Shown: positions 1,480 to 28,334, counted from the first letter of the stretch. The stretch is 35,059 bases of DNA from a virus (UHGV-1502588), one strand, 5' to 3'. Notes: generated from the sequence alone by a model not told the origin. Made by a program: numbers and translations.

Positions 1480-1535
1480 GCCTTACCCCCACGGGGATCA
1501 CTGTATGTAGTGATGCGAGGGTAAGGCTTAGTATT

Positions 1536-1553
1536 GGTCGGAATCCTGACTAA
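1536..1553 (-). promoter_or_regulatory. Late-unit motif copy A (TTAGTCAGGATTCCGACC on the minus strand), about 65 nt 5' of the lysis cassette
   Basis: One of four near-identical 18-mers (see findings). It lies in the intergenic gap between the 85-aa ORF and the holin. Confidence 0.5.
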
Positions 1554-1557
1554 CTTC

Positions 1558-1815
1558 TTACGGGCTTAGTAATTTAAGTGCTTTTTCGATCACTAGCTTT
1601 TCTTGCTCAGGATTTCCACCGGCTGCGATGAATTCATCTTGCAGGCTAATCACCTGTGCATCCAAAGAATCATCACACACTATCGCACTTTCGGTAATAA
1701 ACTTGTCTCGTAGTTTGATCTGCTCGGTCGTAATATCCAGACCTGATATATTGCTAAAGTAATCAATTATCCCACGATACAGATAATCAACCTGCTTAGT
1801 TTCTGTGCCATTCAT
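1558..1815 (-). CDS. Hypothetical protein downstream of the tailspike (possible tailspike chaperone or accessory protein); AT-rich
   Basis: Clean 85-aa ORF whose ATG sits 3 nt after the tailspike stop. Its AT-rich composition matches the exchanged C-terminal part of the tailspike gene. Confidence 0.45.
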   Translation of the reverse strand: MNGTETKQVDYLYRGIIDYFSNISGLDITTEQIKLRDKFITESAIVCDDSLDAQVISLQDEFIAAGGNPEQEKLVIEKALKLLSP

Positions 1816-1818
1816 ATT

Positions 1819-4161
1819 TTAGTTCCCGTACATTCTTAACCCTATTTCTTTAAGGGTATTATTTGCCACACCGTTCGAGTATGTAACTCGCAGGTACATT
1901 GTGTTATCAACGCCTGAGCTAGCCCCCTCTACGGGTAAATATCCTGGCGAAGATGATTGAACATCTGCGGAGACTGACCAGATACCGTCCCCGTTTGCAC
2001 GGGCGGAAACCGATGCCGATAAAAGTACTATAGGGTCTGTTCCATTCCCGTCCACAGCAGACATTGAAATTACATCAATCGTACATACCGAATCCGTAGC
2101 CGCTGCCGCAGCTCCCACACTAAAATCACCGTATGCTGTAAATCCTGAAACAGCGATAGCACCTTCAGGGATCTTATATAAAAAAGTTGCAGTAGCACCG
2201 TTGTTAAATTTCACAGAATTATTAGAATTCCATGATGAAAGAGAAGTAAACGGCGTTCGCAGTATATCCAATGGGCGCAACCACGTAAATTTACGACGCC
2301 ACCCACCAATCGTATTATTGATCAGATACCAGTATTTAATGTTTGCACTGGCTTCGCTTATAGTTATTGAATCCGGCTTGCTCTTAAACCGGTTTCCCGT
2401 TGCATTAGCATTTCTGAAAAACAACTCTTGAAGGCAGTTGGTCGCTTTGATGTTAGAAAACACCGCATACTTACCGGTTACGCCCAGCGCTTGATCGCAA
2501 TTGTTCGCCTCAACCCCATCTATAAAGTTTGGGTTATTTGCATCATTCGTTGTTGCATCGACATAAAATGTACTGACGGCCGATTTAGCATTACCCATTT
2601 TTATGTTTTTAACCAAACAACCTTTGGAGTTGTTGATTAAAATACCTTCGGAGGAAACCGTCCGCCCAAGGTTTGGGACGTTAATATCTCTTATAACGCA
2701 ATCTTCTGTGAAATTAAGCGCCCCAAAACTACCGTTACTGGTGCCCGCGGTCAGTGGTGTTTCAAGGGAGCCCTCTGATATTTCACAATTTGTCGAGTTT
2801 GCAAAGAAAAAGCCAGCGTAATAAGTTCTAACGAGATCGGCTTTAATGACTCGCATATTATGAATTTTCACGTCATAACACGAAGGTGTATTCGGCGTGA
2901 CATCGGAACCCACATTGACACCCTCAGTCCATCCATTGAACACAGGGTTCAGTATTCTGACGTGTTGCGCATTCACGCAGTTAATAGCAAAACCTCCCCA
3001 GTATGTCGGATCGGTATAATATGCTTTTATTACCGGGTTTATGAAATTCACACGCTCAGCCTGAACGAACTGCTGATTATCACGAATATACTGTTTTTGC
3101 GCCGGGTCAGTGAACGCTGCATTAACTATTGAGCCAGGATATGCACCAGACTGGAACAAACTCCATGCCAAATCAAAGTTAAACTCCCGGCTGCTTCCAA
3201 TGATAAAACCACCACGGCCTGTAGTCGCGGAACGAGGATTGATAAACTCCATGGAGCCGCCGCCCACAAACATCACTGTCGTATTCGAATGCGGGAAAAG
3301 ACAAAAATCGACACAGTATTCATCATCAATGATGACCAGCCCACCGCCGTTATCACGTACAGCGTTAAACATTTTCTGGAAACACAATGAATTATCGTGT
3401 GCAAATCCAAGGCCGCCGTTATCTGTATTACCCGCCTTTGCATGAAACATTGCTGGTGTAACCATGTTTTTAACAAGATCAAACAGGTTGCCTGATAACG
3501 GCATGCCAATTAAAGACGTACCAAAATACGCTGCTAATTTTAAAGCGAGATCTGCAGTTTGCGTTTGACCTGCGATAGCAACAGGATCCCCAAAACTATT
3601 AAACCCTAACAGCATCTGCTCGCGAACTTCTACTGGGGGAACCACCCCTACCATCTGCTCAGGAACTCTCAGCACTCTGTTAAGATTCGTTTTTACAGTC
3701 TGACTTACATATTTTTTTGTTGCTGCGTCCTGGTCATTGACAGGGTCAGCAAGGTTTTCGATTCGGTAGCCTTTGGCGTTGAATGGCCCCCCAAAAAAAG
3801 GACGGGTAAGAGCAAACCCAAGATCAATAAACGCGCGCTGGATAGCCATCCAGATACGGTCGAAATCCTTATTGACGGTATCCGCCAGGAGGTCGCCGTT
3901 ATCCTGGTAATCAGTAAGCCGGTATGTCGGTACCACACGTTCGAGCATGACAACCGCACCATTCGCCGGCGGCGTCAGAAACGTAATATCTCCGCCGTCT
4001 TTGTTACCAACGCCGGATACGGTATAGCCGCTGGCAACAACGGAACCATTGATACTTACTTCTAAATCACTGGCGCTGATGATGTAGAATTCGTAAGTAA
4101 ATACGGTTGTCTGTCCGTTGGCCGTATAGATGTTGTAAGGAATTTGGTTAGGTACCGACAT
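1819..4161 (-). CDS. Tail fiber/tailspike: T7 gp17-like N-terminal adaptor domain plus right-handed beta-helix (pectate-lyase-like) capsule depolymerase domain
   Basis: The N-terminal 150 aa (TTVFTYEFYIISASDLEVSINGSVV...DNGDLLADTVNKDFDRIW) follows the T7 tail-fiber N-domain pattern. The remaining 600 aa are Asn/Gly/Ser/Thr-rich with beta-helix repeats. Start chosen at MSVPNQIPYN (GGAG RBS), 18 nt after the terminase stop. Confidence 0.8.
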   Translation of the reverse strand: MSVPNQIPYNIYTANGQTTVFTYEFYIISASDLEVSINGSVVASGYTVSGVGNKDGGDITFLTPPANGAVVMLERVVPTYRLTDYQDNGDLLADTVNKDFDRIWMAIQRAFIDLGFALTRPFFGGPFNAKGYRIENLADPVNDQDAATKKYVSQTVKTNLNRVLRVPEQMVGVVPPVEVREQMLLGFNSFGDPVAIAGQTQTADLALKLAAYFGTSLIGMPLSGNLFDLVKNMVTPAMFHAKAGNTDNGGLGFAHDNSLCFQKMFNAVRDNGGGLVIIDDEYCVDFCLFPHSNTTVMFVGGGSMEFINPRSATTGRGGFIIGSSREFNFDLAWSLFQSGAYPGSIVNAAFTDPAQKQYIRDNQQFVQAERVNFINPVIKAYYTDPTYWGGFAINCVNAQHVRILNPVFNGWTEGVNVGSDVTPNTPSCYDVKIHNMRVIKADLVRTYYAGFFFANSTNCEISEGSLETPLTAGTSNGSFGALNFTEDCVIRDINVPNLGRTVSSEGILINNSKGCLVKNIKMGNAKSAVSTFYVDATTNDANNPNFIDGVEANNCDQALGVTGKYAVFSNIKATNCLQELFFRNANATGNRFKSKPDSITISEASANIKYWYLINNTIGGWRRKFTWLRPLDILRTPFTSLSSWNSNNSVKFNNGATATFLYKIPEGAIAVSGFTAYGDFSVGAAAAATDSVCTIDVISMSAVDGNGTDPIVLLSASVSARANGDGIWSVSADVQSSSPGYLPVEGASSGVDNTMYLRVTYSNGVANNTLKEIGLRMYGN

Positions 4162-4178
4162 AGGGGAAGCTCCGGCGG

Positions 4179-5789
4179 CTAGTAATCTACAGCGACCGAA
4201 ATGTCGCCATCGTATGGCTGCCAATGCTCCCTCGCCTGCGCGGTCGGAATCCCGACTAATTTCCCGATACGTACAGGCGTAGCGCTGATCGCACCGGATC
4301 CAGAATCGATATAGTCGTCTGGCTGGTTAGTTAACGCCGGGTTGAAATCCCGCATCTGGTCGTACATGGGGCCGTCGAGAACGTCGGTATGCGCCCACAG
4401 GAACCGGGACGACAACGGCGCTTCGAATGCATCGAGGATGCGCTTTTGTTTGTTGGTGACGCTGAATTCTTCCCGTACGCCGCAGCCGGTACCCTTCAGC
4501 GCCTGAATAAGCAACTTCCCGGCGAAACTGCCGGGGCCGTTCACTTCTACACATACCAGCGGGATCTGGTACTTCAGCACCAGCTCTTTAATCTGCATCA
4601 CCTGACCGCCGGTGATTTTGTCGTTGTCGTCAAACTCTGCCAGCTCGCCAGTTAACCCCTGGCAAACATGCCAGTAAAGATGCCCGCGGGCGTCGGTGAA
4701 AATAAGGGAAAATGCCGAGGCGTCGGCCTTAACTTTGCCGGTGGCCACATCCCACCAGGCGACAGCGCCGACGATTTGCGTCTGGCCCAGCCACATCGAG
4801 CAGGAACGGTTCGCATAGCGAATTTCAGGCTGGACGTTGTACTCGCGGATACGGTCGGGATCGAGACGAACCTCGCCAACCGGTTTACTGTGCAGCTGGT
4901 ACTGGCTATCCCATTCGTTGACGGTGCGGCACTCTTTACGGCGCAGCAGTAATTCATCATGATCGAAACGGCCTGGCCACGCGCAGCCGGCATAAAAATC
5001 CACGACAGTTTCAGGCGGTGCCGCGAACTCCACACCGTCTTCCGTCAATCGATAATCAGTACCCTCGATCAATAACCGGGCGGCTTTGTGGATCCCCACG
5101 AAAACATATTCCGGGCGGAACGGTATCCGGTATCGTTTTTTGGTTGCCTTCTTCGCTTCGACGCGGTGCTCTTTATCGAATAGCTTTATCGTTAGGCAAT
5201 CGGCGCCCTCTGCTTCTTTCTCGTCGTAAAGGCTATCATGGGTATGCGGCGTACCGATAAACAATTTCCGGCCTCCGGGTATCAAAATATGCGTCTGCTC
5301 GCTTAGGCGATAGCGTAGTTTTTCGCGAGCCTCCGGAGTCTGGATATTGCCGGGCACCTCCACGTCATCATTCTGGCACTCGTTGGCACGGGCGCCGGTG
5401 ACGTTCGACAGAATGCCTTTAGCGAACATGCTGGCGTTACGCATATCCAGCGCGCCGTTTACCCACCATTGCTCGATGGTACCGATGCCGTCCGGCAACA
5501 TGCCTTTCGTCAGAGGGTGATTGCGCAGAACGTTTTGTGTATCGCGGCTGGTCTTTCTGGCAGTTGTATCGGATTCCGACTGATGCAGAATACGGTACTG
5601 GCGATCGCAGTAATACCGCCAGGCGTTATAAACGCCCAGGATAGTTGATTTACCAAAGCCACGAAAACAGCGAAGCACCGCGAGGTTTCCGCGATGCTCC
5701 AGCCAGTGGCAGGCTTTATAGTGGCAGTCCGGCACATCCCAGTTCATCCGTTCTGCCCACATCAAAAAGAAGGCCAGGAACGAAATCAT
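4179..5789 (-). CDS. Terminase large subunit, T7 gp19-like (DNA maturase B)
   Basis: LRCFRGFGKSTILGVYNAWRYY...ILHQSESDTTARK parallels T7 gp19 LQAFRGIGKSFITCAFVVW...ILIVSASKERAD (Walker A). IGTPHTHDSLYDE parallels LGTPQTEMTLYKE. The ATGA overlaps the upstream small gene. Confidence 0.85.
   Translation of the reverse strand: MISFLAFFLMWAERMNWDVPDCHYKACHWLEHRGNLAVLRCFRGFGKSTILGVYNAWRYYCDRQYRILHQSESDTTARKTSRDTQNVLRNHPLTKGMLPDGIGTIEQWWVNGALDMRNASMFAKGILSNVTGARANECQNDDVEVPGNIQTPEAREKLRYRLSEQTHILIPGGRKLFIGTPHTHDSLYDEKEAEGADCLTIKLFDKEHRVEAKKATKKRYRIPFRPEYVFVGIHKAARLLIEGTDYRLTEDGVEFAAPPETVVDFYAGCAWPGRFDHDELLLRRKECRTVNEWDSQYQLHSKPVGEVRLDPDRIREYNVQPEIRYANRSCSMWLGQTQIVGAVAWWDVATGKVKADASAFSLIFTDARGHLYWHVCQGLTGELAEFDDNDKITGGQVMQIKELVLKYQIPLVCVEVNGPGSFAGKLLIQALKGTGCGVREEFSVTNKQKRILDAFEAPLSSRFLWAHTDVLDGPMYDQMRDFNPALTNQPDDYIDSGSGAISATPVRIGKLVGIPTAQAREHWQPYDGDISVAVDY
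4242..4259 (-). promoter_or_regulatory. Late-unit motif copy B (TTAGTCGGGATTCCGACC), inside the 3' end of terL, about 85 nt 5' of the tailspike start
   Basis: Conserved 18-mer; see findings. Confidence 0.5.
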
Positions 5790-6133
5790 TTTTTGCCTTT
5801 GTGTTGCAGCCTCTCGATGACTTCCAGCGCTTTACGCTCAGCAGCTGCTACTTGCTGACCTAACTGGAACGCTTCATCGTCCGGATCTTCTCCGCCGGGC
5901 TTCGGCGTTCCTCCGCGAGTATGCATACCAATTAGTGAATGGACTTTTACCAGCAGGGTTAGCGATGCGGCCGCATTCTTCTTATGCCAGTACCGATCGC
6001 CGCGTTCCTGTTTGGTGTGCTTTGTGATTTCCTTCCCTGCCCCCGGCCAGTTGTCCGGATCGGCTTCTTCCAGAACTACATCTGTGAGCTTATCGCTAAG
6101 AGCAGTAAGGCGAGTTTTGTAATCTGAATGCAT
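5786..6133 (-). CDS. Putative terminase small subunit (positional equivalent of T7 gp18)
   Basis: 115-aa ORF translationally coupled (ATGA) to terL. No confident sequence signature, so the call is by synteny. The start codon is abutted by a hairpin plus U6 with no SD. Confidence 0.45.
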   Translation of the reverse strand: MHSDYKTRLTALSDKLTDVVLEEADPDNWPGAGKEITKHTKQERGDRYWHKKNAAASLTLLVKVHSLIGMHTRGGTPKPGGEDPDDEAFQLGQQVAAAERKALEVIERLQHKGKK

Positions 6134-6162
6134 AAAAAAGCCCCGTAGTTATCCATAGGGCT
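6134..6162 (-). terminator. Hairpin plus U6 element on the minus strand, directly abutting the terS start codon (terminator, attenuator or processing site)
   Basis: Minus strand reads AGCCCTATGGATAACTACGGGGCTTTTTTATG: a 5-6 bp stem, 14-nt loop and T6, then ATG. Confidence 0.4.
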
Positions 6163-6180
6163 ATGATGTATTCTTTCAAA

Positions 6181-6198
6181 GGTCGGAATCCTGACTAT
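6181..6198 (-). promoter_or_regulatory. Late-unit motif copy C (ATAGTCAGGATTCCGACC), 5' of the hairpin and terminase genes
   Basis: Conserved 18-mer. It lies between the moron and terS. Confidence 0.5.
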
Positions 6199-6214
6199 CA
6201 CAAGGAACATTAGA

Positions 6215-6736
6215 ATGAAAAAACTCATCCCATTATTGCTAATTTTTCCCTTTACTGCCTCTGCCTCCACAGATTTAATTGAGGATTCAGGATATATCGT
6301 CCCAATATCAGGCCCAGGAATACAAATTACTAACCCGTACACTGACTATAAGGTCATTAGCGGTATCGATAACGGTAAAAAAATTGTACTAAATGTGTCA
6401 GTATTAAACCTACGTTCCTACAAGGAGAATGCAGACCTAAGCGAATCTAATAAAAATTATGCGGAAGGAAGTAAAACTGTATTCAGTTACGGCGATAACG
6501 CTTACACAAAGGATTTTATAAAATTCTCCTCGGAAGCAGCTATAAATTCGACAAAAGAAGACCTAAAAAAATTATATTGTACGCCTGATGGTATTTACCC
6601 TATGTCCTCACAGGAGAGACTATTCTACGAAGCACGGAAAGAACATAAGACAATAATGCTCAATTACTACAGTGATTCAGGAAAAACCCTCATATTTGGG
6701 TTTGGGGTTTCTCCAGAATCATGTAAATCGAAATAG
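6215..6736 (+). CDS. Moron: secreted/periplasmic protein of unknown function, AT-rich, on the opposite strand to the virion operon
   Basis: N-terminus MKKLIPLLLIFPFTASAST is a classical Sec signal peptide with an AxA site. RBS AAGGAAC. The GC content is clearly lower than its neighbours. Its stop TAG directly abuts the stop (CTA) of the convergent internal virion protein gene. Confidence 0.7.
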   Translation: MKKLIPLLLIFPFTASASTDLIEDSGYIVPISGPGIQITNPYTDYKVISGIDNGKKIVLNVSVLNLRSYKENADLSESNKNYAEGSKTVFSYGDNAYTKDFIKFSSEAAINSTKEDLKKLYCTPDGIYPMSSQERLFYEARKEHKTIMLNYYSDSGKTLIFGFGVSPESCKSK

Positions 6737-9631: not shown

Positions 9632-12345
9632 TATTCATTGCTCCATGAAAAGTAGTTTTTAACCCGGTTCATACGGTCATCGTGCAAACGCTGATATTGT
9701 TCATCGAGCGCACGGTGTTTTTCCTTAAAGCCTCGAATATCTTTCCCGTGTGATATTTCCTCTTCGCCTTGCTGTTCCCGCTCCTGCTGCATTTTTTTAT
9801 ACGGCTCCCAGTCTTCCAGCGACGGCTTCCAGCGCAAAGGACGGCCAAATTTATCGTTATACAGCTGAACCTTCGGAATCCCATTCTCATCTTTAGAGCG
9901 TATAACTATTGAGTACATCCCATCCCGAGGGGTCATTACATCCGGGGTTATTTCCAGTTCTCCACCGATACGCGATTCTGGGGTACTTGATGTAATAACA
10001 GGCGCTGAGCCTGAGGTAATTCCTAGTTGGGTCGGACTGGTTTCAATTATTTCTCCACGGTCGCCATAAGTCAGACGCTCTTTTTCTTCTTTCCACTGAG
10101 CAGCCTGCCACCCTGAGGGGCCATAGTTATAAAGCGCTTCAGGCGCATATTTCATAAGCTGGGCGCTGCCATTTACATCGCTAAGACTCCAGGTGCGCGC
10201 GATCTGGGTATTGGTCATCTTTTTGGCAATATCAGCATTACCACCTGAATTGCGATAATTAATGTCATAAAGTGACTGGTAGTCATTACGGAATTTTACA
10301 GTATCAGGATTCTGGTCATCCGCGGCGGGGCCGCCAAAGCTGTACCACGGTTTCATGCTGCTGACTGCGGAATCCATTGCGCTATCACGCTCTTTTCTAT
10401 ATTCCTTCGTGCTCTGCGTAGAAGACAATTGCGATTTCAGGGCGTCAGTCTGGTTGTAGGTCACGTTCTGCGCCTGTTTCACCGCTTCGTCTGACGCCAT
10501 ACCGGAGTCGGTAAGCTGTTTAACGGTCAGGTAAAAGCTTTGCATATCCTTTGGCATATCGCCCACAGAGGCTGGATCTGTTTCGTACAGAGCGTTAAAT
10601 AAGGTCGAGCCCTGCTTCACCACATCGGGACTGCTGGAGCGGGCGATCGCATTCAGTTGTGATGTAACTTGCGATGGGATAATGCCCGTCTGGTTAACTT
10701 GCTGCACGATAGCGTCGTGAGTGGTGGCGTCGTTAATGCGGAAGTTAAGCGCCGATGGCGTATTGTCCGCCGCCTTCTGCATGGATTTGTTGCTCGGGTC
10801 GAGTTTCTCGCCGGAGATCAGCGCGTCGTTAAAGCGGGCGGAATCACGCTGCGCCTGAATATTGGCGTTGCTCTTCTGCACCAGCGCACTAAGTTTGCCA
10901 TACGCATCGAGTTTCAGTGCGTAATCCGGGTCGTTTGCCTGCGGCTTCACTTTCGCCAGTTCGGCCTGCTGTTCTGCCGGGGTGACGTACTGGATAGCCT
11001 GGAAGGTTCTGGCGTTATCGATCGCGATATCCAGCTGCTTGATGATAGCCTGCCCTTGTTCGCCATATCCTCGCATTATTGTATCGGCGTTGAGCATAGC
11101 CTCTGGTACTTCGCCATTATATAACTGCGCAAAATTGTTATTGAGAATCGGGTCAATCTGCTGGCGCAGTGCCGTACGCTGCTGGCGGATCTGCGATTCG
11201 GCGATATTGTCGATTTTGTTTACTGCTACCGGGTCGAGACCAGTTTTATTTTTGTTGTAACGGGAAAGCCAACCACGCGTTTCGGCTGGCAGCTGCTTAA
11301 CGAAATCCGCCATTGAGATTTCGCCTTTGCGCGGGTCGCCAACTTTAGCGATCAGCTTATCGACGTTACCCATACCCCAGTTATATGCAGCACCGGCCAG
11401 CGTTTCAGACTGATATTTTTTACTGAGCTGCCCGGCATAATCGCGCGCCAGCTGCGCATGCTGCACAGGGTCGTCCGGGTTGTACTCCACGCCACGTTTA
11501 GACGCCAGTTCTTTCCCGGTGTCCGGCATCAACTGAAATTCACCCTGCGCGCCCGCGGGGGATGTAACAAGGCTACCATCTGCATTGCGGTGCTTGCCGC
11601 CAGATTCCACCAGGCCAACGGCGCGCATATCAAGTTCGCCGGTGCTGCTGTTGACCAGCGTAAAATCGCCATTAAGCCAGCCGGTGGGATTGGTTACTGC
11701 GTAGTTCTGCGCGCGCTGCTCAAGCGCTTTTTGGTTCGCTTCTGAGACCGCACCATCGATGCGCTCCTGTGACCAGCCGCGCGCCTGGCCATACATCTCG
11801 ATCGAGTGTTTCCGGGCGCTGCGTATTAGCCCGGCCTGCATCGGGTTATCGTAGGCACTGGCCTCCTGTTCAACTGAAGATGTCACCGTCGCGTTAAGCT
11901 GCTGGCGCTGGGCTTCCTCAGTCTGCGCACGCTCGAAACCGCTATAGGTGCTTGTCCGGCGTACCTGCCCCGCTTTCCACTGTGCATCAAAATAGTTTAA
12001 CTGGCTGGGCGGCACGCGCTTGCGCGCTTCCTCGTAATCGCCAGCGTCGGCCTTATCCATATCGGCGACCACACCGGACGATTTAAAGCCCTGACGCGTG
12101 ACCGTGGCGCCCGTCTCCGGGTTTTCCCAGCGGTCATTAGATTTAGCTTCCAGATCGGTCAGAATAGCCTGCGTGGCCGCTACGTCGGCTTTATCCTGTC
12201 GGCGCTGTTCCAGATCAGCAGCTTCGCCTAATGCCACACCCGCGCCAGAAATTGCATTGCCAATGGCGCCAACGTTGCTGACTGCCACCCGGTTTTGCTG
12301 CGCCTGCGGCGTTACATTGCCGAAATTTCCAGTTGGTATTCTCAC
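9631..12345 (-). CDS. Internal virion protein with a lytic transglycosylase (SLT) domain, T7 gp16-like function
   Basis: The central segment GEFQLMPDTGKELA...AAYNWGMGNV is SLT-like (E-x-G, LMQ/LMP and AYN motifs). 904 aa. GTG start directly after the upstream TAA, with a GGGGG SD. Confidence 0.65.
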   Translation of the reverse strand: MRIPTGNFGNVTPQAQQNRVAVSNVGAIGNAISGAGVALGEAADLEQRRQDKADVAATQAILTDLEAKSNDRWENPETGATVTRQGFKSSGVVADMDKADAGDYEEARKRVPPSQLNYFDAQWKAGQVRRTSTYSGFERAQTEEAQRQQLNATVTSSVEQEASAYDNPMQAGLIRSARKHSIEMYGQARGWSQERIDGAVSEANQKALEQRAQNYAVTNPTGWLNGDFTLVNSSTGELDMRAVGLVESGGKHRNADGSLVTSPAGAQGEFQLMPDTGKELASKRGVEYNPDDPVQHAQLARDYAGQLSKKYQSETLAGAAYNWGMGNVDKLIAKVGDPRKGEISMADFVKQLPAETRGWLSRYNKNKTGLDPVAVNKIDNIAESQIRQQRTALRQQIDPILNNNFAQLYNGEVPEAMLNADTIMRGYGEQGQAIIKQLDIAIDNARTFQAIQYVTPAEQQAELAKVKPQANDPDYALKLDAYGKLSALVQKSNANIQAQRDSARFNDALISGEKLDPSNKSMQKAADNTPSALNFRINDATTHDAIVQQVNQTGIIPSQVTSQLNAIARSSSPDVVKQGSTLFNALYETDPASVGDMPKDMQSFYLTVKQLTDSGMASDEAVKQAQNVTYNQTDALKSQLSSTQSTKEYRKERDSAMDSAVSSMKPWYSFGGPAADDQNPDTVKFRNDYQSLYDINYRNSGGNADIAKKMTNTQIARTWSLSDVNGSAQLMKYAPEALYNYGPSGWQAAQWKEEKERLTYGDRGEIIETSPTQLGITSGSAPVITSSTPESRIGGELEITPDVMTPRDGMYSIVIRSKDENGIPKVQLYNDKFGRPLRWKPSLEDWEPYKKMQQEREQQGEEEISHGKDIRGFKEKHRALDEQYQRLHDDRMNRVKNYFSWSNE

Positions 12346-12813
12346 TTAAGCCCCCTGCTTTGTTTTCCAGCCGTTATACGCTTTGGCACCACCCGACAAT
12401 AAAGAGCTGCCAGCGTTGATATAGCCGGCAGTTGCTGCGTTATTTCCACTGATGCGGTCAGCCTGCGCCTGCGATTGCAGACGGTTAGACGAATTCACGC
12501 CATTAAGGATCGTCTGGTAGGCGTCCTGTTCGGCGTCTTCAGTAATGCCAGAGGTGATACGCAGCGCGGTACCTTCGCCAGTTTCAACACCCGACGCCGC
12601 CAGCGAAGCGTTAGCCGCTGCGGCCTGTTCACGCCCGGCTTTACGGATACGGTCGGCTTCCACCCTTGCGGCTTTCTGACTCGCCTCTGCATCAGCTTCC
12701 GCCTGTGCTGCCTGATAGTTCGCCATTTTTTTCTGCTGCTGTCCGCTATACGCTGCGCCGCCAGCGGCTAACACCGTGGACGCCACCAGGGCAATTTCTA
12801 CGCCAGTGCACAT
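12346..12813 (-). CDS. Internal virion protein B, T7 gp14-like
   Basis: The N-terminus MCTGVEIALVASTVLAAGGAAYSGQQQKKM parallels T7 gp14 MCWAAAIPIAISGAQAISGQNAQAKM. Ala/Gln-rich. Confidence 0.6.
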   Translation of the reverse strand: MCTGVEIALVASTVLAAGGAAYSGQQQKKMANYQAAQAEADAEASQKAARVEADRIRKAGREQAAAANASLAASGVETGEGTALRITSGITEDAEQDAYQTILNGVNSSNRLQSQAQADRISGNNAATAGYINAGSSLLSGGAKAYNGWKTKQGA

Positions 12814-12815
12814 TG

Positions 12816-13268
12816 TTAAACCTCCATCGAATAAAGCAGGCCTGTTTGCTGCAGGCCGAGACGCGAATACAACTGGCCGGTGCGTTCAGCGTGCACGCCA
12901 GTGGTGATCCCCATGTTGATAACGGCGGCGCCGTGCTCTTTTGACCAGTCAATAAACGCGCGTGCCAGTCGCGGCCCGGCGCTGCCGCCCCGATGTTCTG
13001 GCGCGACAAATAAGCCGTATTCGAAGGCCATCAACTGGCGGGAAAAAAACTGCTCGGCAATACCGCCGCCAAGCCAGCCGATAACCTGCCCGTCTTTTTC
13101 GGCGACCAGTACGCAACCAGACGGCGAATAAATCAGGCTTTGCGCCAGTTCTGCGCATTTATCCGCATCAAACGGCGAGTTTTGCGAGTAACGGGACTCG
13201 AGATACATCCGGGTTCCCAGCTCGATAAGCACCGGAATATCCCCGGCAGTGGCGTTACGAATCATCAT
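12816..13268 (-). CDS. GNAT-family N-acetyltransferase in the gp13 position of the virion operon
   Basis: MMIRNATAGDIPVLIELG ... VIGWLGGGIAEQF ... FEYGLFVAPEHRGGSAGPRLARAFIDWSKEHG has the GNAT fold signature (acetyl-CoA pyrophosphate-binding R-x-x-G-x-G/A loop). The ATG overlaps the stop of tail tubular protein B (TAATG). Confidence 0.7.
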   Translation of the reverse strand: MMIRNATAGDIPVLIELGTRMYLESRYSQNSPFDADKCAELAQSLIYSPSGCVLVAEKDGQVIGWLGGGIAEQFFSRQLMAFEYGLFVAPEHRGGSAGPRLARAFIDWSKEHGAAVINMGITTGVHAERTGQLYSRLGLQQTGLLYSMEV

Positions 13269-15262
13269 TAGCCCCCGTTGCTGGTAAAGACGATGACAAT
13301 GGCGAGAAGATGGAACGGCAGCGGCTGGCGCTGCTGAATAGTCAGCGAGTCTTCTCCGCGCTCCCAGCCTAATTTTCCCCAGTAGTGATCGCCGGTGAAT
13401 AAAGGCGCCGGCTGGTTGAGGATTTTTGGCCCGAACGTGCGGAACGGGATCACCTGGCCGTTGCACTCGGCGCCAGTGGTTTCGAGGAAACGCATAGTGA
13501 CTTCACTTGTGCGCTTGCGGGTGTTCTGCGTGGTGCCTTCAGACGTAGCGACTTCAGGCGTCAGCGTGGTAATAGTCGTTTCAAAATGCAGGCCGATTTC
13601 GACTTTGTAGGCTTTGCGCGAAAGCGTGATTTGGCCGGATGATACGACCGCCTGCGGCATCACAGAGCCGTCTGCAACGATATCAACGGTCTCGCCTTCG
13701 AGGTGCGACAGGCCGCCCCATGTCGTTGCTCCAGCATCGCTGGATCCCGTCACGGCTGCATCGGTGTACAGGGCGCTGCTGAGCATTTCTACATAGCGAA
13801 CGGTCTGGCCGTTGACCGTACGGCGCACAATGGCGTACACCACATCGTCAGTCGCTGAGGGAATAGTCGCTACGGACTCAAACGCACCACTGGTGATCTG
13901 TCGTGACCACGCGACAACGTTCTGCGCCCGGTCGATAGCCATCGTCACCATTACGCCATCATTGCGAACCAGCCAGGTAAACGCATCAGGTTGCTGCTGA
14001 TACGCCATATCGATCACACCGCCTTCTGTGATGTGTTCCGCCAGTACAGTCATATCGTTGGCCGAGTAAGCTACATAGCTGTCGGGGTCATAGGCGACAG
14101 CGTAGAGCTTACGGCCAGAACGCTGGACGAACATAATTTCGGTACCGACGCGTACCGGGCGGATCCCGTTGCATCCGTACGGACTGGGATTTTTTACTGA
14201 AATATTGGTAGGCGTAATCGCCGCATCGTTACCAGCGGTGATGGTGAACTCGCCGCCGTACGTCAGCGCAATTAGCGTATTCATCTGCGCGAGGTGCACA
14301 ATCGGGTTGAGCTGGTCAGAAGACAGCGTAAAGCTGATCGCGTCGTCGTCATCGGTTCCCAGCTCGAAAGAGAGGTATACGCCCGATTCGCTCCACCAGA
14401 TAGTTTGCGGATACTGTGGCGAACCGGCCAGAACCAGCCGCTGCTGGTAAAGCGTTACCGCGCCCGGGTATCCAAATTCATCCGTCCAGACGGAATCCTC
14501 GCGAGTCCAGGCGCCCGGTGATGCCGCCTGAGTTGCGCTTAAATCGGTGCGAATGGTACCGACGGCGACCTGCGCACTGGCCACGCTCTTAATCAGCACC
14601 AGACCGCTGTTAATCCTGACGTACGAGCCCACATCTTCAGGCACCCAACCATCACCAGTAAACGGCGGTGGGTCTTCGCTACCTTCTGGCGGTTCGTCAT
14701 CGCTCAGGGTCAGCGTTATTTCCGAGCCGACGAATTCTTTTACCGATGGCTTGCACCATTTCTGCGGCGTGTCACGTACTTCGTCGAAGGGTTCAACGAT
14801 AAACGGCGCTGGTTCCAGTACCCAATCGGTTTGCCCGCGTCTCTGCAGGCGATGCGGTTTAACGGCCTGATGCACCAGAAACATGGTATCAGCGCCCTGA
14901 ACGTAATTTACCGATGGCAACATGTCAGAGGTGTACGGGCTGGCGATTTCGTACGGCGTGTTGTCTTCGTTCACCAGCTGCTTACCGTCCTGGTAAATTC
15001 GCAGATAGCCGTCGCCAAACTCCAGAATGTAAGCCTGCGTGCGGTTGAAAACGTACGGAATGAGGCGGGATTTTTTGTCGCCGTATTTTGCGGCCGCTAC
15101 GAACTGCGAGCCGGGGCGGCGCATTACCCCGCCCTGTACCACGACCACACTATTTTCCAGCGTCTTCGCGCCATTCGCATAGCGATCGATATCAACGCGC
15201 CCCATAAGACGCGGGGAAATTTCGCCGGCGGTGAAGTTTGTTTTAATCAGATTGGCGCGCAT
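13268..15262 (-). CDS. Tail tubular protein B (T7 gp12-like, nozzle)
   Basis: About 665 aa, in the gp12 position, coupled (TGAcATG) to the gp11-like gene. The start is ambiguous: 15298, 15280 or 15262, and I favour 15262 (GAGG RBS, no overlap). Confidence 0.6.
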   Translation of the reverse strand: MRANLIKTNFTAGEISPRLMGRVDIDRYANGAKTLENSVVVVQGGVMRRPGSQFVAAAKYGDKKSRLIPYVFNRTQAYILEFGDGYLRIYQDGKQLVNEDNTPYEIASPYTSDMLPSVNYVQGADTMFLVHQAVKPHRLQRRGQTDWVLEPAPFIVEPFDEVRDTPQKWCKPSVKEFVGSEITLTLSDDEPPEGSEDPPPFTGDGWVPEDVGSYVRINSGLVLIKSVASAQVAVGTIRTDLSATQAASPGAWTREDSVWTDEFGYPGAVTLYQQRLVLAGSPQYPQTIWWSESGVYLSFELGTDDDDAISFTLSSDQLNPIVHLAQMNTLIALTYGGEFTITAGNDAAITPTNISVKNPSPYGCNGIRPVRVGTEIMFVQRSGRKLYAVAYDPDSYVAYSANDMTVLAEHITEGGVIDMAYQQQPDAFTWLVRNDGVMVTMAIDRAQNVVAWSRQITSGAFESVATIPSATDDVVYAIVRRTVNGQTVRYVEMLSSALYTDAAVTGSSDAGATTWGGLSHLEGETVDIVADGSVMPQAVVSSGQITLSRKAYKVEIGLHFETTITTLTPEVATSEGTTQNTRKRTSEVTMRFLETTGAECNGQVIPFRTFGPKILNQPAPLFTGDHYWGKLGWERGEDSLTIQQRQPLPFHLLAIVIVFTSNGG

Positions 15263-15263
15263 G

Positions 15264-15827
15264 TCAGAACCTCGATTCATACGTTGGGTAGCCGCCAAGC
15301 TCTTCCGGTGGGTCTTCCTGACCGTCCACGGCCTTTGCCTGCTTCAGCAATACCAGCGATTCCTGGGCGAGACTGTCGCGCAGACTGGTAGAGCCAGTGA
15401 CGGCATAGGCCAGCTTTGCCTGCATCATCATTTCTGCCACATCAACGAGCGCGGCATCCCAGGTGGATTCGTCTTCGTTGCGGAACACATAACGCAGCTT
15501 CAGTACCTGCACATTCGCCAGTAGCCGGTTGCCTTCGACGCGGTACGGAATATCGTCGCAAGGTTCCCCAACGGACAAGACGCGAAGAAGATCACCGGGT
15601 AGCGCGAACTGAAAGCGGAAACCGAATACCGGTGCTGTACTGACAGGAGAGAGAACCACACGTTTTACAACGCAGTTCCACGGATGCGCGCGCAGCAGCT
15701 TATTGCGTACAGTGGGATAAAGGTTTGAGCACAGACGGGCGTGATCGGTGTTTTCGTCGAAACTGTTAATCGGGTGAGCACCGAGCGCCAGCAGTGCGTT
15801 AGAGCAGATAGAAATACTGTCAGCCAT
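15264..15827 (-). CDS. Tail tubular protein A (T7 gp11-like, adaptor)
   Basis: The N-terminus SNALLALGAHPINSFDENTDHARLCSNLYPTVRNKLLRAHPWN parallels T7 gp11 [42 protein letters not shown]. 187 aa. Confidence 0.7.
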   Translation of the reverse strand: MADSISICSNALLALGAHPINSFDENTDHARLCSNLYPTVRNKLLRAHPWNCVVKRVVLSPVSTAPVFGFRFQFALPGDLLRVLSVGEPCDDIPYRVEGNRLLANVQVLKLRYVFRNEDESTWDAALVDVAEMMMQAKLAYAVTGSTSLRDSLAQESLVLLKQAKAVDGQEDPPEELGGYPTYESRF

Positions 15828-15886
15828 AGCCTTACCTCAGATGAAAAAAGGCCGGGAGATATCCCCCGGCAAAGGCACCAGCGGCT

Positions 15887-16798
15887 TTATACTACGAAAT
15901 CGATGGCGACTACTTTGTTTTCCGCTGCGCGGCCTGCGCCATAGGACGCATCGACGGAAATCTGAATGGTGTTGTTTTTATCGCGGCGCGGGCCGATATC
16001 GACGTTGTACTCTTCGCCGGTACCGAAATGCACAGCGGTTTTACACCAGGCAACTGCGGTTTTGGTGGTGACAGCTGGATCACCTGCTTCAGCAGAATCC
16101 AGTTTTTCATAGGCCAGCCACTTAAAGCCCAGCCAGTTACCAGACACTGCGCCTTCCTGCAGCATTTTCACCGCCATAAAATCGGCGCTGGTCAGCGTGG
16201 TATCGCTGAGAATTTGGGTCAGCATGTCGGCGTTGTAGGTGATATACAGCTCTTCACCATTCTGCTCGTCACACTCGTTACGGCGGAACATGGCTTTGGC
16301 GGCGATCAGCTTCGCTTTGGTCATCCCGGTACCGCCGGCGACGATTTTCTGCGATGCGGGAAGCGCAACCGGAGCGTACGCGCCAGTGTTGGAGGTTTTG
16401 CGCAGAACGTCATCCAGCAGCGCACGATAGATAACATCGTCTTTTTTGCGGTTGGATGCGGCCAGCGTCAGCTGCAAATATGGCCCCTGCGGGTCAGCCA
16501 GCAGTTTGCGCAGGTCGCGCTTTTCCACCGGCACGAATACGCCATAGTCAGCCATCAGCGCATTACGGGTGCCGGCATCAGGCAGATCCCAGACGGTATC
16601 ACCGAAACGCTCGGTGATCTGGGTCATTTCGATGGTACCCATATCGTTGATGGTGAACGACGCACCGGTGATGTTGCCGCGGTCGTAAACAGCACCTTGC
16701 AGGCGGGAATCCTTCTGCTGTGCGGCAATTTCGAAAGAATCATGGAACTGCTGGATAAACGCAGCGGTGATCATGTTCTTAGCGGTATCAAATGACAT
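15887..16798 (-). CDS. Major capsid protein (T7 gp10-like pattern, HK97 fold presumed)
   Basis: Starts MSFDTAKNM with a GGAG RBS. About 304 aa, directly after the scaffold gene in T7 order. The segment FIQQFHDSF...ITGASFTINDMG parallels T7 gp10 LFLKVFGGE...KSAQFPVLG. Confidence 0.65.
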   Translation of the reverse strand: MSFDTAKNMITAAFIQQFHDSFEIAAQQKDSRLQGAVYDRGNITGASFTINDMGTIEMTQITERFGDTVWDLPDAGTRNALMADYGVFVPVEKRDLRKLLADPQGPYLQLTLAASNRKKDDVIYRALLDDVLRKTSNTGAYAPVALPASQKIVAGGTGMTKAKLIAAKAMFRRNECDEQNGEELYITYNADMLTQILSDTTLTSADFMAVKMLQEGAVSGNWLGFKWLAYEKLDSAEAGDPAVTTKTAVAWCKTAVHFGTGEEYNVDIGPRRDKNNTIQISVDASYGAGRAAENKVVAIDFVV

Positions 16799-16946
16799 AA
16801 CAATCACTCCAGAAAGTATCGCCTGCGGGGTATCGGTTTCCCGGCCCAAATCAGCACAATGCGGTTGGCGCTGGCGCATTGCGGGAAAATCAGGTATCCG
16901 GCGTCCCCGCCGGGCTGGTTGTGGAGTGATTGTTAGCGAGGTGCGC

Positions 16947-16964
16947 GGTCGGAATCCCGACCAA
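16947..16964 (-). promoter_or_regulatory. Late-unit motif copy D (TTGGTCGGGATTCCGACC), immediately 3' of a terminator and about 150 nt 5' of the capsid gene
   Basis: Conserved 18-mer. Here the GGTCGG/CCGACC arms are perfectly complementary. Confidence 0.5.
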
Positions 16965-16992
16965 ATAAAAAAGCCAGCGGGTTAGGCTGGCT
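16964..16992 (-). terminator. Rho-independent terminator (minus strand) after the 89-aa gene
   Basis: Minus strand reads AGCCAGCCTAACCCGCTGGCTTTTTTATTT: a 7-bp stem followed by T6. Confidence 0.65.
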
Positions 16993-17010
16993 TAGTTCGC
17001 GAGGGATTAT

Positions 17011-17280
17011 TTAGCAGTCTCCATCCGGACGGGCCACCGCACGGCATCCCCACATACAGGCTTCCTGCATTTTTGTGGTCGCCAACGCGGCGCTACGGTA
17101 AGCAGCAGTGCGGTCAGAGAGAACTGGATCCTGCGGTAACAAATCCAACTGAATATTTCGCAACTCTCGAATAAAATCGCGACTCAGTTCTTTTAGGCGA
17201 TTCATTGCTGCGATTTCTGCATCGCTTAATTTTCTGTATCCCTTAACGGTGCTGCCATCTTGCGGTTTTGCTTCACTCAT
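17011..17280 (-). CDS. Hypothetical 89-aa protein between the scaffold and capsid genes
   Basis: ORF with good spacing and its own terminator. T7 has no counterpart at this position. Confidence 0.4.
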   Translation of the reverse strand: MSEAKPQDGSTVKGYRKLSDAEIAAMNRLKELSRDFIRELRNIQLDLLPQDPVLSDRTAAYRSAALATTKMQEACMWGCRAVARPDGDC

Positions 17281-17313
17281 TGGTCTTTCCTCTGATTAAG
17301 TTATCGTGACATG

Positions 17314-20706: not shown

Positions 20707-20716
20707 AGTGAGTCGT
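20707..20716 (-). promoter_or_regulatory. Exact match to the T7-class promoter core CGACTCACTA (T7 positions -12 to -3), 5' of the first virion-module gene
   Basis: Minus strand reads CAATGACGACTCACTAATTCAGGAGTGAAAAAAAATG. The flanks diverge from the T7 consensus (-1/+1 are not TA/G). Possibly vestigial. Confidence 0.25.
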
Positions 20717-21012
20717 CATTGTGTGTTGCCCTTCTGGTCAGTTTCCCGACCAAAAACAGGGCGTCGGAACGTCCACCACTGCCGATAAAGCACAGTGGGG
20801 AGTTTTTTTCGGTCTGAGCTGGTAGCCAGACACCAGAGAGCGATAAGCGCCTCACCGTGACCGTGGCGAGGCTCTGATCCGGATTTCCAACCGAGAACGG
20901 CAGATTTCGAAACGCCAAGTTCATCGGCGATTTGCTGAGTGGTGAGGTTTTTTCTGGTCAGGTCGGTAATGACGCGGAACCAGTCTGTTCGGAAGGTGGC
21001 AACCAGCGGCAT
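20716..21012 (-). CDS. Small HTH DNA-binding protein (candidate late-gene regulator)
   Basis: LTTQQIADELGVSKSAVLGW is a helix-turn-helix. GGGGG RBS. It is the last gene before the virion module. Confidence 0.55.
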   Translation of the reverse strand: MPLVATFRTDWFRVITDLTRKNLTTQQIADELGVSKSAVLGWKSGSEPRHGHGEALIALWCLATSSDRKKLPTVLYRQWWTFRRPVFGRETDQKGNTQ

Positions 21013-25674: not shown

Positions 25675-25712
25675 TGGTCTTTCCTCGGTTATATCGCGCT
25701 GGTCAGGCGCGG

Positions 25713-28314: not shown

Positions 28315-28334
28315 TGGTCTTTCCTCGGTACAGG

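Follow-up and report, generated by a model that had tools for sequence, protein, structure and literature searches.

Near-palindromic boxes as candidate activator sites at putative late promoters of a temperate podovirus

How a phage with a T7-like virion module and no RNA polymerase of its own might switch on its late genes is the question raised by a short element repeated in the stretch of viral DNA analysed here (35,059 nucleotides, hereafter the window). The window is a temperate podovirus of the T7/BPP-1-like type, with a lambdoid early region. No phage RNA polymerase was found in any window ORF, and every large ORF has another function assigned, including one of 725 aa that corresponds to a RecE-like exonuclease. 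A preliminary description, made without knowledge of the origin of the DNA, had reported four copies of an 18-bp element in front of late gene blocks, together with a weaker fifth copy, and had favoured recognition at the DNA level, as a late promoter or activator site, over an RNA hairpin.

The repeated box is a real feature of this DNA, and not a product of chance. Exact matches to GGTCGGAATCC (plus strand) begin at positions 1536, 4242, 6181 and 16947 of the window, where none is expected by chance, and none occurs in 100 dinucleotide-preserving shuffles of the window. The four minus-strand copies first described are thus borne out, and all four 18-mers are within one mismatch of GGTCGGAATCCYGACTAA. 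The fifth copy reads GGTCAGTTTCCCGACC on the plus strand; it differs from the 18-mer by four mismatches, and is therefore absent from a scan that permits three. This copy is genuine, being supported by synteny with an E. coli prophage (L003) that has a consensus box at the same place and by the spacing to a -10 element that it has in common with the other boxes, but it is 16 nt long (20736-20751) and does not extend to 20753 as had been proposed. The gene positions originally given for all copies also hold (Table 1), including the location of copy D directly after a terminator, and copy C is indeed followed by a hairpin and U6 at the terS AUG.

The conserved unit is a near-palindromic box of 16 bp, (G/A)GTC(G/A)G-GAWW-CCGACC, in which an inverted repeat (GGTCGG-N4-CCGACC) separates the half-site centres by 10 bp. 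The loop between the arms varies even inside single genomes, and can be GATT, GAAA or GAAT. Box B falls within the 27 codons at the 3' end of terL, with the tailspike ATG downstream at 4161, and box E is within the 3' tail of an ORF for a helix-turn-helix (HTH) protein, ahead of the 147-aa/portal operon. An exact copy of box A precedes the lysis cassette of Yersinia phage YeP4. A degenerate sixth box, D2, is conserved as GCCGGGAAACCGACA in loci L003, L127, L129, L130, L134, L145 and L209, and could represent a weak promoter in tandem or an additional binding site. The tailspike gene contains one chance look-alike of the box (2947-2961), which lacks the -10 signature described below.

Table 1. 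Boxes, predicted promoter elements and neighbouring features of the window
Feature	Position	Strand	Description
Box A	1536..1553	-	TTAGTCAGGATTCCGACC; proposed lysis-cassette promoter; -10 TACCCT at 1518-1523; predicted start ~1511
Holin ATG	1479		Downstream of box A
Holin leader	1480..1527	-	Long-range stem CCUUACCC/GGGUAAGG; 5' arm overlaps the -10 of promoter A
Box B	4242..4259	-	TTAGTCGGGATTCCGACC; proposed tailspike promoter; -10 GAGCAT at 4224-4229; predicted start ~4217
Box C	6181..6198	-	ATAGTCAGGATTCCGACC; proposed terS/terL promoter; -10 CATCAT at 6163-6168; predicted start ~6156
Hairpin AGCCCU...GGGGCU + U6	6136..6162	-	Abuts the terS AUG; 5' arm upstream of the predicted start of promoter C
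ATG of terS-like gene	6133		After box C
Terminator-like hairpin	15851..15870	-	Just 3' of the capsid gene; with box D brackets the capsid gene
Degenerate sixth box, D2	16831..16845	-	GCCGGGAAACCGATA; TACTTT at 16813-16818; ~33 nt before the capsid ATG at 16798
Box D	16947..16964	-	TTGGTCGGGATTCCGACC, a perfect palindrome; proposed capsid promoter; -10 AACAAT at 16929-16934; predicted start ~16922
Intrinsic terminator	16971..16993	-	Ends the portal/scaffold operon; directly upstream of box D; conserved in YeP4
Box E	20736..20751	-	GGTCGGGAAACTGACC; proposed promoter of the 147-aa/74-aa/portal/scaffold operon; -10 CACAAT at 20718-20723; predicted start ~20711
HTH protein	20716..21012	-	98 aa; proposed late-gene activator; weak Pfam HTH matches, PHROG 16553, AlphaFold model

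Boxes are found at the same five places in two E. coli prophages (L002 and L003), in YeP4 and in ~90 viral contig fragments, and the window, L002, L003 and YeP4 each carry five syntenic copies. The genes next downstream of 125 boxes in related contigs most often encode the major capsid protein (34), tailspike (29), holin (25), terS (19) and the 147-aa protein (10). The group occurs in Klebsiella, Raoultella, Enterobacter, Serratia, Yersinia and E. coli. Only 3 of 5,426 complete E. coli genomes contain a prophage of this type, and the hosts of box-bearing phages span Enterobacterales to Burkholderiales. A Zeimonas locus, whose HTH protein is 40% identical, has two boxes that still carry the -10 signature. 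As a point against the model developed below, relatives in Acinetobacter and Alcaligenes have a quite different repeated box.

The main new observation is that every box is followed, at a fixed distance of 13 nt, by a sigma-70-type -10 signature, A-N3-T. This signature is at the same distance in five unrelated sequence contexts of the window and in all relatives, and accompanies 5/5 copies in the window and 5/5 in YeP4. Counted from the G of GTC, position +28 is A in 78 and position +32 is T in 77 of 99 non-redundant instances, whose flanks are otherwise unconserved, and A-N3-T is enriched at that offset only (264/533, versus at most 49 at any other offset). Both nucleotides are present at 125/125 exact boxes in 90 viral stretches that encode homologs of the window's late proteins, but at only 5/30 boxes in 29 viral stretches without such homologs, where the boxes are chance occurrences of the 15-mer.

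This arrangement suggests that the box sits at approximately -40 to -25, the usual place of a -35 hexamer, and that transcription would start ~7 nt past the -10 element. Read from the sequences at a 17-bp spacer, the position of the -35 hexamer is occupied by GGATTC or GGAAAC, with 0/6 matches to TTGACA, and a scan for sigma-70 consensus promoters found none at late gene starts. The -10 elements are weak, and their -12 position is unconserved. Each late promoter would accordingly comprise a short AT-rich stretch at ~-44 to -40, the 16-bp box, a 12-nt spacer and a weak -10 element of the form nA-N3-T (e.g., AACAAT, CACAAT, CATCAT, TACCCT or GAGCAT). Because the -35 hexamer is absent and the -10 is poor, such promoters should be silent alone. 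The original preference for a promoter rather than an operator is refined: the promoter assignment is supported, with an operator-like, near-palindromic site embedded in its -35 region.

The 98-aa HTH protein had been singled out early as a candidate regulator, and in relatives the box does track its gene. An AlphaFold model of the protein (pLDDT 75) has four helices in a Cro/CI-like fold of the XRE type, also comparable to that of CII, with P22 c2, C.BclI, SinR and HipB as its best fold matches, and PHROG 16553, to which it belongs, is labelled "transcriptional repressor" by annotation transfer only. In L002 (100% identity), L003 (60%) and YeP4 (51%) the gene likewise immediately precedes box E, and it is retained even though the early modules of HTH-bearing genomes differ or are unrelated. 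No other non-virion protein is shared by every box-bearing genome, and nearly all of 89 HTH-bearing loci have a box at the 3' end of the gene. Conversely, vB_EcoM_APEC has a related virion module, yet neither an HTH homolog nor a box was found in it. Co-occurrence across unrelated early modules and absence from this box-less relative both agree with this candidate; against it, no recognisable box was found downstream of three distant HTH homologs (L131-L133).

Variation in the HTH protein also appears to correlate with variation in the box, within a sample of few independent lineages. Recognition helices of the form ...SAVL, ...SAII or ...STLL accompany the right half-site CCGACC, those of the form ...STVH or ...ATLF accompany CCGAAC, and ...ISTLR accompanies CCGTTC. 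The left half-site remains GGTCGG in lineages with an altered right half. A constant left half is unexpected for a simple symmetric dimer on identical half-sites, so part of the right half may have another reader, such as sigma region 4.

From these observations we infer that the HTH protein binds the box and that it activates transcription rather than repressing it. The reading that we favour, and consider somewhat probable, is that the boxes are activator docking sites at late promoters without a -35 hexamer, with the HTH protein as the activator. Each repeat would form the upstream half of a late promoter that host RNA polymerase uses, with five such promoters in all, or perhaps six. The HTH gene lies at the end of the early rightward operon, and its product would bind the box; the 10-bp distance between half-site centres makes a dimer probable. 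Bound protein would recruit RNA polymerase through sigma region 4, the alpha subunit, or both, and thereby turn on the portal/scaffold operon from box E, the capsid from D, terminase from C, tailspike from B and lysis from A, five blocks in all.

Most likely, the box promoters are an undescribed example of a familiar phage gene switch, and by geometry they resemble promoters that depend on CII, PhoB or MotA. Lambda CII (PDB 1zs4, 1xwr and 8igr), 97 aa long, is a phage activator of the HTH type that resembles lambda repressor in fold. It binds across the -35 region of pRE, pI and paQ, which have no usable -35 hexamer and a modest -10, recognising direct repeats (TTGC-N6-TTGC) as a tetramer, and drives lysogeny genes. 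In contrast, the box is an inverted repeat, and its targets are late virion and lysis genes; the cII position in the window is taken by a YdaT-type protein. Residues 23-52 of the HTH protein are weakly collinear with residues 24-53 of the CII HTH (GVSKSAVLGWK versus GVDKSQISRWK). An hhalign comparison, which covers only 30 HTH columns, gave an E value of 0.001 and a probability of 21%, CII sequences from the PDB matched with E values of 0.5-0.7, and the protein has no match to Pfam Phage_CII. Because this sequence similarity is weak, homology to CII is not established. In T4 middle promoters (MotA box plus AsiA, sigma appropriation) and PhoB pho-box promoters, a box replaces the -35 element ~12 bp upstream of a sigma-70 -10, and activity requires an activator at the box that either touches sigma region 4 or takes its place. 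However, the MotA box is 9 bp, asymmetric and requires the AsiA co-factor, and the pho box consists of direct repeats, unlike the near-palindromic inverted repeat described here; homologs of MotA, AsiA and PhoB were not found in the window.

In their logic, the putative promoters recall those controlled by Mu C, P2 Ogr/P4 Delta and P1 Lpa, where a small protein from the end of early or middle transcription activates several dispersed late promoters that have a common conserved site and no good -35. C and Ogr belong to other families (Mor/C and zinc-finger Ogr, to which neither Pfam nor PHROG links the HTH protein), and their sites are located differently (~-55 for Ogr, -30 to -55 for C). Restriction-modification C proteins are also small dimeric XRE-type HTH proteins that act at palindromic boxes by or over the -35 and activate via sigma-70. 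C.BclI, C.Kpn2I and C.AhdI are among the closest folds to the HTH protein, in weak matches with E values of about 0.03-0.3. Such proteins autoregulate one operon through two adjacent operators, however, whereas the window has single boxes at five dispersed promoters.

The promoter geometry stands whichever factor binds, and another factor could read the box while the HTH protein does something else. This could be a host factor or a small sigma-like or sigma-remodelling phage protein, for which the 147-aa and 74-aa proteins, portal neighbours without a known function that are conserved in enterobacterial members, are candidates. The independent variation of the right half of the box hints at a second reader. 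Nevertheless, neither of these two proteins shows a DNA-binding or sigma-like signature in Pfam or NCBIfam, and whereas the HTH protein was detected in the Zeimonas and L211 loci, which bear boxes, the other two were not. A host factor is unlikely because the hosts span Enterobacterales to Burkholderiales, and the spacings for sigma-54, sigma-28, sigma-E and sigma-32, compared by eye with consensus sequences, do not fit the box. We regard another reader as unlikely overall. Less likely still, the boxes could be operators at which the HTH protein or another repressor covers the -35 region of late promoters, in the manner of immunity operators or mycobacteriophage stoperators. A Cro/CI-like fold is typical of repressors, the PHROG family is labelled as one, and overlap with the -35 region is a classic repressor position. 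With no match to the -35 consensus and a weak -10, however, there would be little to repress. Moreover, the HTH gene does not accompany cI but follows the replication and nin-type genes on the lytic (cro-side) strand, and the cI/cro operators of the window (29103-29134 and 29709-29773) are rich in AT and bear no relation to the box. Sites of the stoperator type, as in mycobacteriophage cluster A, were rejected, since the dispersed boxes do not resemble these operators.

It is very improbable that the box functions as an RNA hairpin on late mRNAs, be it for processing, for stabilisation or for antitermination in the manner of nut/boxB. A stem of 5-6 bp capped by a GAUU loop is possible in copies D and B, and copy D folds with -9.5 kcal/mol (z = -3.2) on the mRNA strand. 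However, copies A and C have A·C mismatches on that strand, copy A folds no better than shuffled sequence (-2.1 kcal/mol), and pairing in the YeP4-type box (GGTCGGGAAACCGAAC) is broken by an internal G·A mismatch. Compensatory changes are absent among >100 copies, the loop is variable, and, given the -10 assignment, the box would be upstream of the transcript start. All computational tests, including the fixed distance to the -10 and the failure to keep a hairpin, agree with the DNA-level recognition first advanced. The boxes are least of all expected to be promoters for a T7-type single-subunit RNA polymerase or a host REP-like repeat. Their placement before the capsid and tail fibre genes is that of T7 class III promoters, in a T7/BPP-1-like virion module with the same gene order and a terminator after the capsid gene. 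T7 promoters are 23 bp and are read by the phage enzyme, though, whereas here a box is followed by a sigma-70-type -10, and the complete YeP4 genome, like the window, has no RNA polymerase among its annotated genes. A REP-like repeat, which had been raised as a possible origin of the element, is contradicted by the host flanks, given that ~30 kb of host DNA beside each of L002 and L003 contains no box; the copies in viral contigs adjoin homologs of this phage's late genes.

Returning to the proposed activator-dependent promoters, two of them overlap potential RNA structures. In read-through RNA, the holin leader folds with -31.6 kcal/mol (z = -4.5), compared with -8.3 kcal/mol (z = 0.5) for RNA from the predicted start, and its long-range stem, which would mask the holin ribosome-binding site in read-through RNA, is retained in 21 relatives solely through one-sided, wobble-compatible changes, with no double compensation. 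The hairpin before terS (CATAGCCC...GGGGCTTTTTTATG) is kept in 17 unique relatives. A tentative and rather doubtful extension is that the 98-aa protein defines a widespread family of late activators and, jointly, that its promoters are built into RNA switches. In temperate, RNA-polymerase-less relatives of T7/BPP-1/HTVC010P podoviruses, the box promoters might then correspond to the dispersed class III promoters of T7, with host polymerase as their enzyme. At promoter A, the -10 would double as the 5' arm of the stem masking the holin ribosome-binding site, and at promoter C the terminator ahead of terS would have its 5' arm just upstream of the start. Read-through RNA would be terminated or translationally silent, and terminase and holin would be expressed only from box-initiated RNA.

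These results provide a concrete, testable model of late-gene timing in common but unstudied temperate podoviruses with a T7-like virion and no phage RNA polymerase, which specifies a single small activator and five mapped promoters with their predicted start sites. The combination of box and -10 is a highly specific marker, as the contrast between in-family and chance copies indicates, and could help in annotating the late transcription units of prophages of this kind and in designing expression parts under activator control. The model also bears on how T7-like phages may have been regulated before, or are regulated without, a polymerase of their own.

The string GGTCGGAATCC occurs exactly four times in the window, and no exact match was found in 100 dinucleotide-preserving shuffles of it. 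As 18-mers, copies A to D are each at most one base off GGTCGGAATCCYGACTAA. All late genes of the window lie on the minus strand, on which the element reads (T/A)T(A/G)GTC(A/G)GGATTCCGACC, with half-sites GGTCGG and CCGACC whose centres are 10 bp apart. This spacing is usual for a dimeric helix-turn-helix (HTH) protein. The central four bases differ among copies (GATT, GAAA, GAAT) even inside single genomes. Box D is a perfect palindrome in every case, and a weaker left half, AGTCAG, is frequent in boxes A and C (17 of 30 unique class A and 10 of 17 class C sequences). Box E (GGTCGGGAAACTGACC) has four mismatches to the 18-mer and was therefore missed by a three-mismatch scan, but it is genuine on the evidence that follows. 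The four conserved minus-strand copies, and the weaker fifth before the first virion-module gene, thus stand as the preliminary description had them. A look-alike in the tailspike gene (2947-2961) is a chance match and not a further copy.

Five boxes are found at the same five places in two E. coli prophages, L002 (92% identical to the window) and L003 (virion module 80% identical; early module quite different, with VapE and a DNA polymerase), and in Yersinia phage YeP4. Four of the YeP4 boxes are the variant GTCGGGAAACCGAAC, and the one before the lysis cassette is GTCAGGATTCCGACC, which suggests that YeP4 took over its lysis module, promoter included, from a phage with the other type of box. 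In IMG/VR, GTCRGGATTCCGACC is present in at least 119 stretches, and homologs of the window's late proteins are encoded in 90 of the 119 listed. Because the box is syntenic in relatives and absent from the host flanks of L002 and L003, and because this prophage type occurs in only 3 of 5,426 complete E. coli genomes, it is not a host-wide REP-like repeat, a possibility considered earlier.

The flanks of 99 non-redundant box instances are unconserved but for two features of their profile. At 5 nt upstream the sequence is AT-rich; downstream, with the G of GTC numbered 0, there is an A at +28 (78 of 99) and a T at +32 (77 of 99). A-N3-T is the signature of the sigma-70 -10 hexamer, with A at -11 and T at -7. 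The pair lies at that offset in 264 of 533 both-strand matches, about half of which are the reverse strand of the near-palindromic box, and at every other offset in no more than 49. Among the matches listed, it accompanies all 125 exact boxes of 90 stretches that encode homologs of the window's late proteins, and just 5 of 30 boxes of 29 stretches without related genes; these 29, largely chance 15-mer occurrences, are the cleanest control. All five YeP4 copies have A-N3-T at the expected distance. The box would therefore lie at about -40 to -25, its centre near -32.5, in the expected place of a -35 hexamer. The hexamer at a 17-bp spacer (GGATTC) has 0 of 6 matches to TTGACA, and the -12 position of the -10 element is unconserved. 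Starts predicted from the -10 alone would give leaders of about 24 to 124 nt. A consensus scan found no ordinary sigma-70 promoters at late gene starts. It did locate two terminators, one directly ahead of box D and one directly behind the capsid gene, the former being the intrinsic terminator that copy D was said to follow directly, and this bracketing of a palindromic box is consistent with high capsid expression. Compared by eye, the consensus spacings of sigma-54, sigma-28, sigma-E and sigma-32 do not fit.

If the late element acted as RNA, its arms would have to pair in the transcript, and copy D does fold on the mRNA strand at -9.5 kcal/mol. Copy A reaches -2.1 kcal/mol, a stability that does not exceed that of shuffled sequence. 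On the mRNA strand, G-to-A substitutions leave A·C mismatches in copies A and C, the YeP4 variant is interrupted by a G·A mismatch, and no compensatory changes were found among more than 100 box copies. The -10 assignment, moreover, puts the box upstream of the transcript. We therefore reject the RNA hairpin and consider action as RNA very improbable, in agreement with the earlier preference for a DNA-level site. Since all substitutions in copies A to D are G·T-compatible on the plus strand, an N4-type template-strand DNA hairpin was also considered; copy E and the YeP4 variants break the G·T rule and rule it out.

The HTH of the 98-aa ORF adjoining box E belongs, in an AlphaFold model (pLDDT 75), to a predicted four-helix Cro/CI-type domain, whose nearest folds, at weak E-values, are P22 c2, restriction-modification controller proteins, SinR and HipB. 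No significant relative was found among solved structures. The HTH segment is collinear with lambda CII (GVSKSAVLGWK vs GVDKSQISRWK) in a weak match (hhalign E 0.001, probability 21%); membership of the CII family is unsupported, because the similarity falls short of significance and the box is built as an inverted, not a direct, repeat. Homologs 97-100% identical come from Klebsiella and Raoultella. The gene directly precedes box E in the window, L002, L003 and YeP4, and the early modules of L003 and YeP4 have no protein in common with the window. In a protein-by-protein comparison of the window, YeP4, L003, a Zeimonas locus and locus L211, only the HTH gene and the virion genes were common to all box-bearing genomes. 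An HTH ORF could be recognised in 89 loci from HTH-family searches. In nearly all of them the gene's 3' end carries a box, and another precedes the capsid gene 3.5-4 kb further downstream. At the Zeimonas (Burkholderiales) locus, whose homolog shares 40% identity, there are still two boxes, GTCGGGATTCCGTT(C/G), and a -10 follows each of them (GATACT, GAGGAT). Phage vB_EcoM_APEC, a negative control with a related virion module (capsid 41% identical), has neither HTH homolog nor box. The box and the HTH gene thus co-occur across these relatives, a pattern that the preliminary description had proposed to look for. In distant HTH-bearing phages, a 14-mer search found no recurring box downstream of the HTH gene (L131-L133, L136, L137), and a 12-mer family search for BcepC6B returned mostly GC-rich low-complexity words.

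We propose that the HTH protein, encoded where the early rightward operon ends, acts through the boxes: bound there, it would bring host sigma-70 holoenzyme to five promoters otherwise too poor to fire. In lambda, Q holds the matching position. Where boxes A and C have the weaker left half, lysis and packaging could come later than capsid synthesis. The right half-site appears to vary with the recognition helix: CCGACC goes with ...SAVL, ...SAII and ...STLL, CCGAAC with ...STVH and ...ATLF, CCGACA with ...TTLL (ARTTLL), and CCGTTC with ...ISTLR. This pattern, from few independent lineages, is suggestive, and a simple symmetric dimer does not explain the independent variation of left and right half-sites. 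Some other factor might read the box, which we think unlikely. It is more doubtful still that the HTH protein is a repressor, even though its nearest folds include P22 c2 and its candidate sites would lie in the place of a -35 hexamer.

The C-terminal tail of the HTH ORF, ending in FGRETDQKGNTQ and the stop codon, is encoded by promoter E itself (20716-20760, minus strand). Shorter homologs stop before the box, so the tail is perhaps accidental read-through of the promoter; dual use as coding tail and promoter may explain the divergent box E (GAAACTGACC).

Alcaligenes phage Piluca and Acinetobacter phage TPWB-05, whose HTH protein is ~40% and capsid ~50% identical, carry a different repeated box, (T/A)CACCCAACAAAC. 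It is intergenic, before terS, the tail tube gene, the holin gene and the pre-portal gene. A hairpin and U-run abutting the start codon lie downstream of every copy, at distances that vary. This box has no fixed distance to a -10-like element in either phage, and we therefore do not generalise the promoter architecture to them.

PHROG and Pfam scans show that the window is a complete temperate phage with a T7/BPP-1-type virion module and no RNA polymerase gene. Its lambdoid early region also encodes YdaT, an O-like replication protein, DnaB, two DNA methyltransferases, DUF1367 and a NinG/Ref-like nuclease, and its leftward arm a RecE-like 725-aa exonuclease, a Gp157-like protein, xis and int. 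Bases 1-123 match the tRNA-Leu/attP region common to phage mEp390 and many E. coli chromosomes; with this attP-like left end, and xis and int at the right end, the window is in essence a single entire prophage. The capsid protein clusters with those of Yersinia phages YeP4-6, temperate podoviruses of Acinetobacter and Alcaligenes, and the HTVC010P group of Pelagibacter. NCBIfam named none of the small conserved proteins.

Several other elements were observed. On either side of the cI-like gene are AT-rich inverted repeats (88-89% complementary) that coincide in part with sigma-70-like promoter matches and bear no relation to the late box; they are most likely the immunity operators OR/OL. A 173-aa ORF (PHROG 8033), is on the opposite strand between an internal virion protein gene and box C; L002 has an ORF in this place too, L003 and YeP4 have none, and the 173-aa ORF looks like a moron-type insertion beside a late promoter. 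One translation-start block precedes at least five genes from different modules. Non-coding tandem units of ~48 bp, GAGGAAAGACC...CATGACCAGCCCTGACA, with three copies of TGACAGNCGGGAAAGACCG, lie between a cI-side small ORF and a 107-aa gene, and might be iterons or a small RNA.

Coordinates of boxes, genes and other elements in the window and of boxes in YeP4
Feature	Position	Strand	Details
Box A	1536	exact GGTCGGAATCC on plus	before holin gene; -10 TACCCT; predicted start near 1511 (minus)
Box B	4242	exact GGTCGGAATCC on plus	last codons of terL, before tail fibre gene; -10 GAGCAT; start near 4217 (minus)
Box C	6181	exact GGTCGGAATCC on plus	before terS; -10 CATCAT; start near 6156 (minus)
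Box D	16947	exact GGTCGGAATCC on plus	between terminator (upstream) and capsid gene; -10 AACAAT; start near 16922 (minus)
Box E	20736-20751	minus	before 147-aa/portal operon; -10 CACAAT; start near 20711 (minus)
Sixth box, GCCGGGAAACCGATA	16813-16845	minus	includes -10-like TACTTT at promoter spacing
Terminator	16993-16971	minus	just before box D
Terminator	15870-15851	minus	just after capsid gene
HTH ORF	20716-21012	minus	98 aa
cI-like gene	29182-29637	plus	PHROG/Pfam
cro-like gene	28842-29078	minus	PHROG/Pfam
147-aa and 74-aa proteins, then portal	portal 18382-20004	minus	PHROG/Pfam
Bbp19-like protein, scaffold	after portal	minus	PHROG/Pfam
Capsid	15887-16798	minus	PHROG/Pfam
Tail tube A and B, acetyltransferase-like protein	after capsid	minus	PHROG/Pfam
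Internal virion proteins (155, 904, 964 aa)	after acetyltransferase-like gene	minus	PHROG/Pfam
terS-like gene	5786-6133	minus	PHROG/Pfam
terL	4179-5789	minus	PHROG/Pfam
Tailspike	1819-4161	minus	PHROG/Pfam
Holin, endolysin, Rz	end of virion module	minus	PHROG/Pfam
xis and int	33745-34993		right end
173-aa ORF	6215-6736	plus	PHROG 8033
Inverted repeats	29103-29134, 29709-29735, 29742-29773		flank cI-like gene
Start block GAGGAAAGACC(A)ATG	17276-17303, 25670-25697, 28310-28337	minus	minus-strand genes
Start block GAGGAAAGACC(A)ATG	30626-30650, 33734-33758	plus	plus-strand genes
Tandem units	29800-30110		non-coding
YeP4 boxes	17956, 21350, 32999, 34940		AAACCGAAC type
YeP4 box	1916-1930		ATTCCGACC type; lysis cassette

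The sixth, degenerate box is ~110 nt past box D, and ~33 nt separate it from the capsid ATG. Several relatives keep it as GCCGGGAAACCGACA, and it could be a weak promoter in tandem or a further site for the activator. In the capsid 5' leader (16850-16925, minus strand), ATACCTG comes after a conserved hairpin, CCGGCGGGGACGCCGG. This hairpin can be identified in YeP4 and also in relatives rich in GC (ggcccgcggtggcgcgcggacaccc, for example); a role in mRNA stability or translation is possible.

The window's proposed promoters share their geometry and logic with several known types. One comprises lambda CII, PhoB pho-box and T4 MotA middle promoters, in which a box stands ~12 bp from the -10 in place of the -35; another comprises the late-activator systems of Mu (C), P2/P4 (Ogr/Delta) and P1 (Lpa). 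T7 class III promoters are alike in placement only. A full-text literature search with the motif strings matched only unrelated primer sequences, and the papers found on BPP-1, BcepC6B, YeP4 and Piluca are genome descriptions with nothing on late promoters; a paper on APSE phages (PMC8579659) does not describe them either. The late-promoter system therefore appears to be new, though of familiar type. In APSE phages, a Q antiterminator and late genes of P22 type accompany an early module like that of YeP4 (PMC8579659), which fits the idea that a late regulator travels with its virion module.

Two leaders hint at what box-dependent initiation might achieve. Read-through RNA across site A is strongly structured (-31.6 kcal/mol, z = -4.5): in the holin leader (1480-1527, minus strand), CCUUACCC pairs with GGGUAAGG, the holin ribosome-binding site. 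Because this 5' arm overlaps the promoter A -10, the stem would be absent from box-initiated RNA, which from predicted start A folds at -8.3 kcal/mol (z = 0.5). Kept in 21 relatives through one-sided wobble-compatible changes only, the stem would hide the ribosome-binding site in read-through RNA. The terminator-like hairpin and U6 reported to abut the terS AUG downstream of copy C are at 6136-6162 (minus strand), and their CATAGCCC...GGGGCTTTTTTATG is conserved in 17 unique relatives. The 5' arm (AGCCC) is just upstream of predicted start C, so this hairpin should form only in read-through transcripts. If transcription starts as predicted, holin and terS would be efficiently expressed from box-initiated transcripts only.
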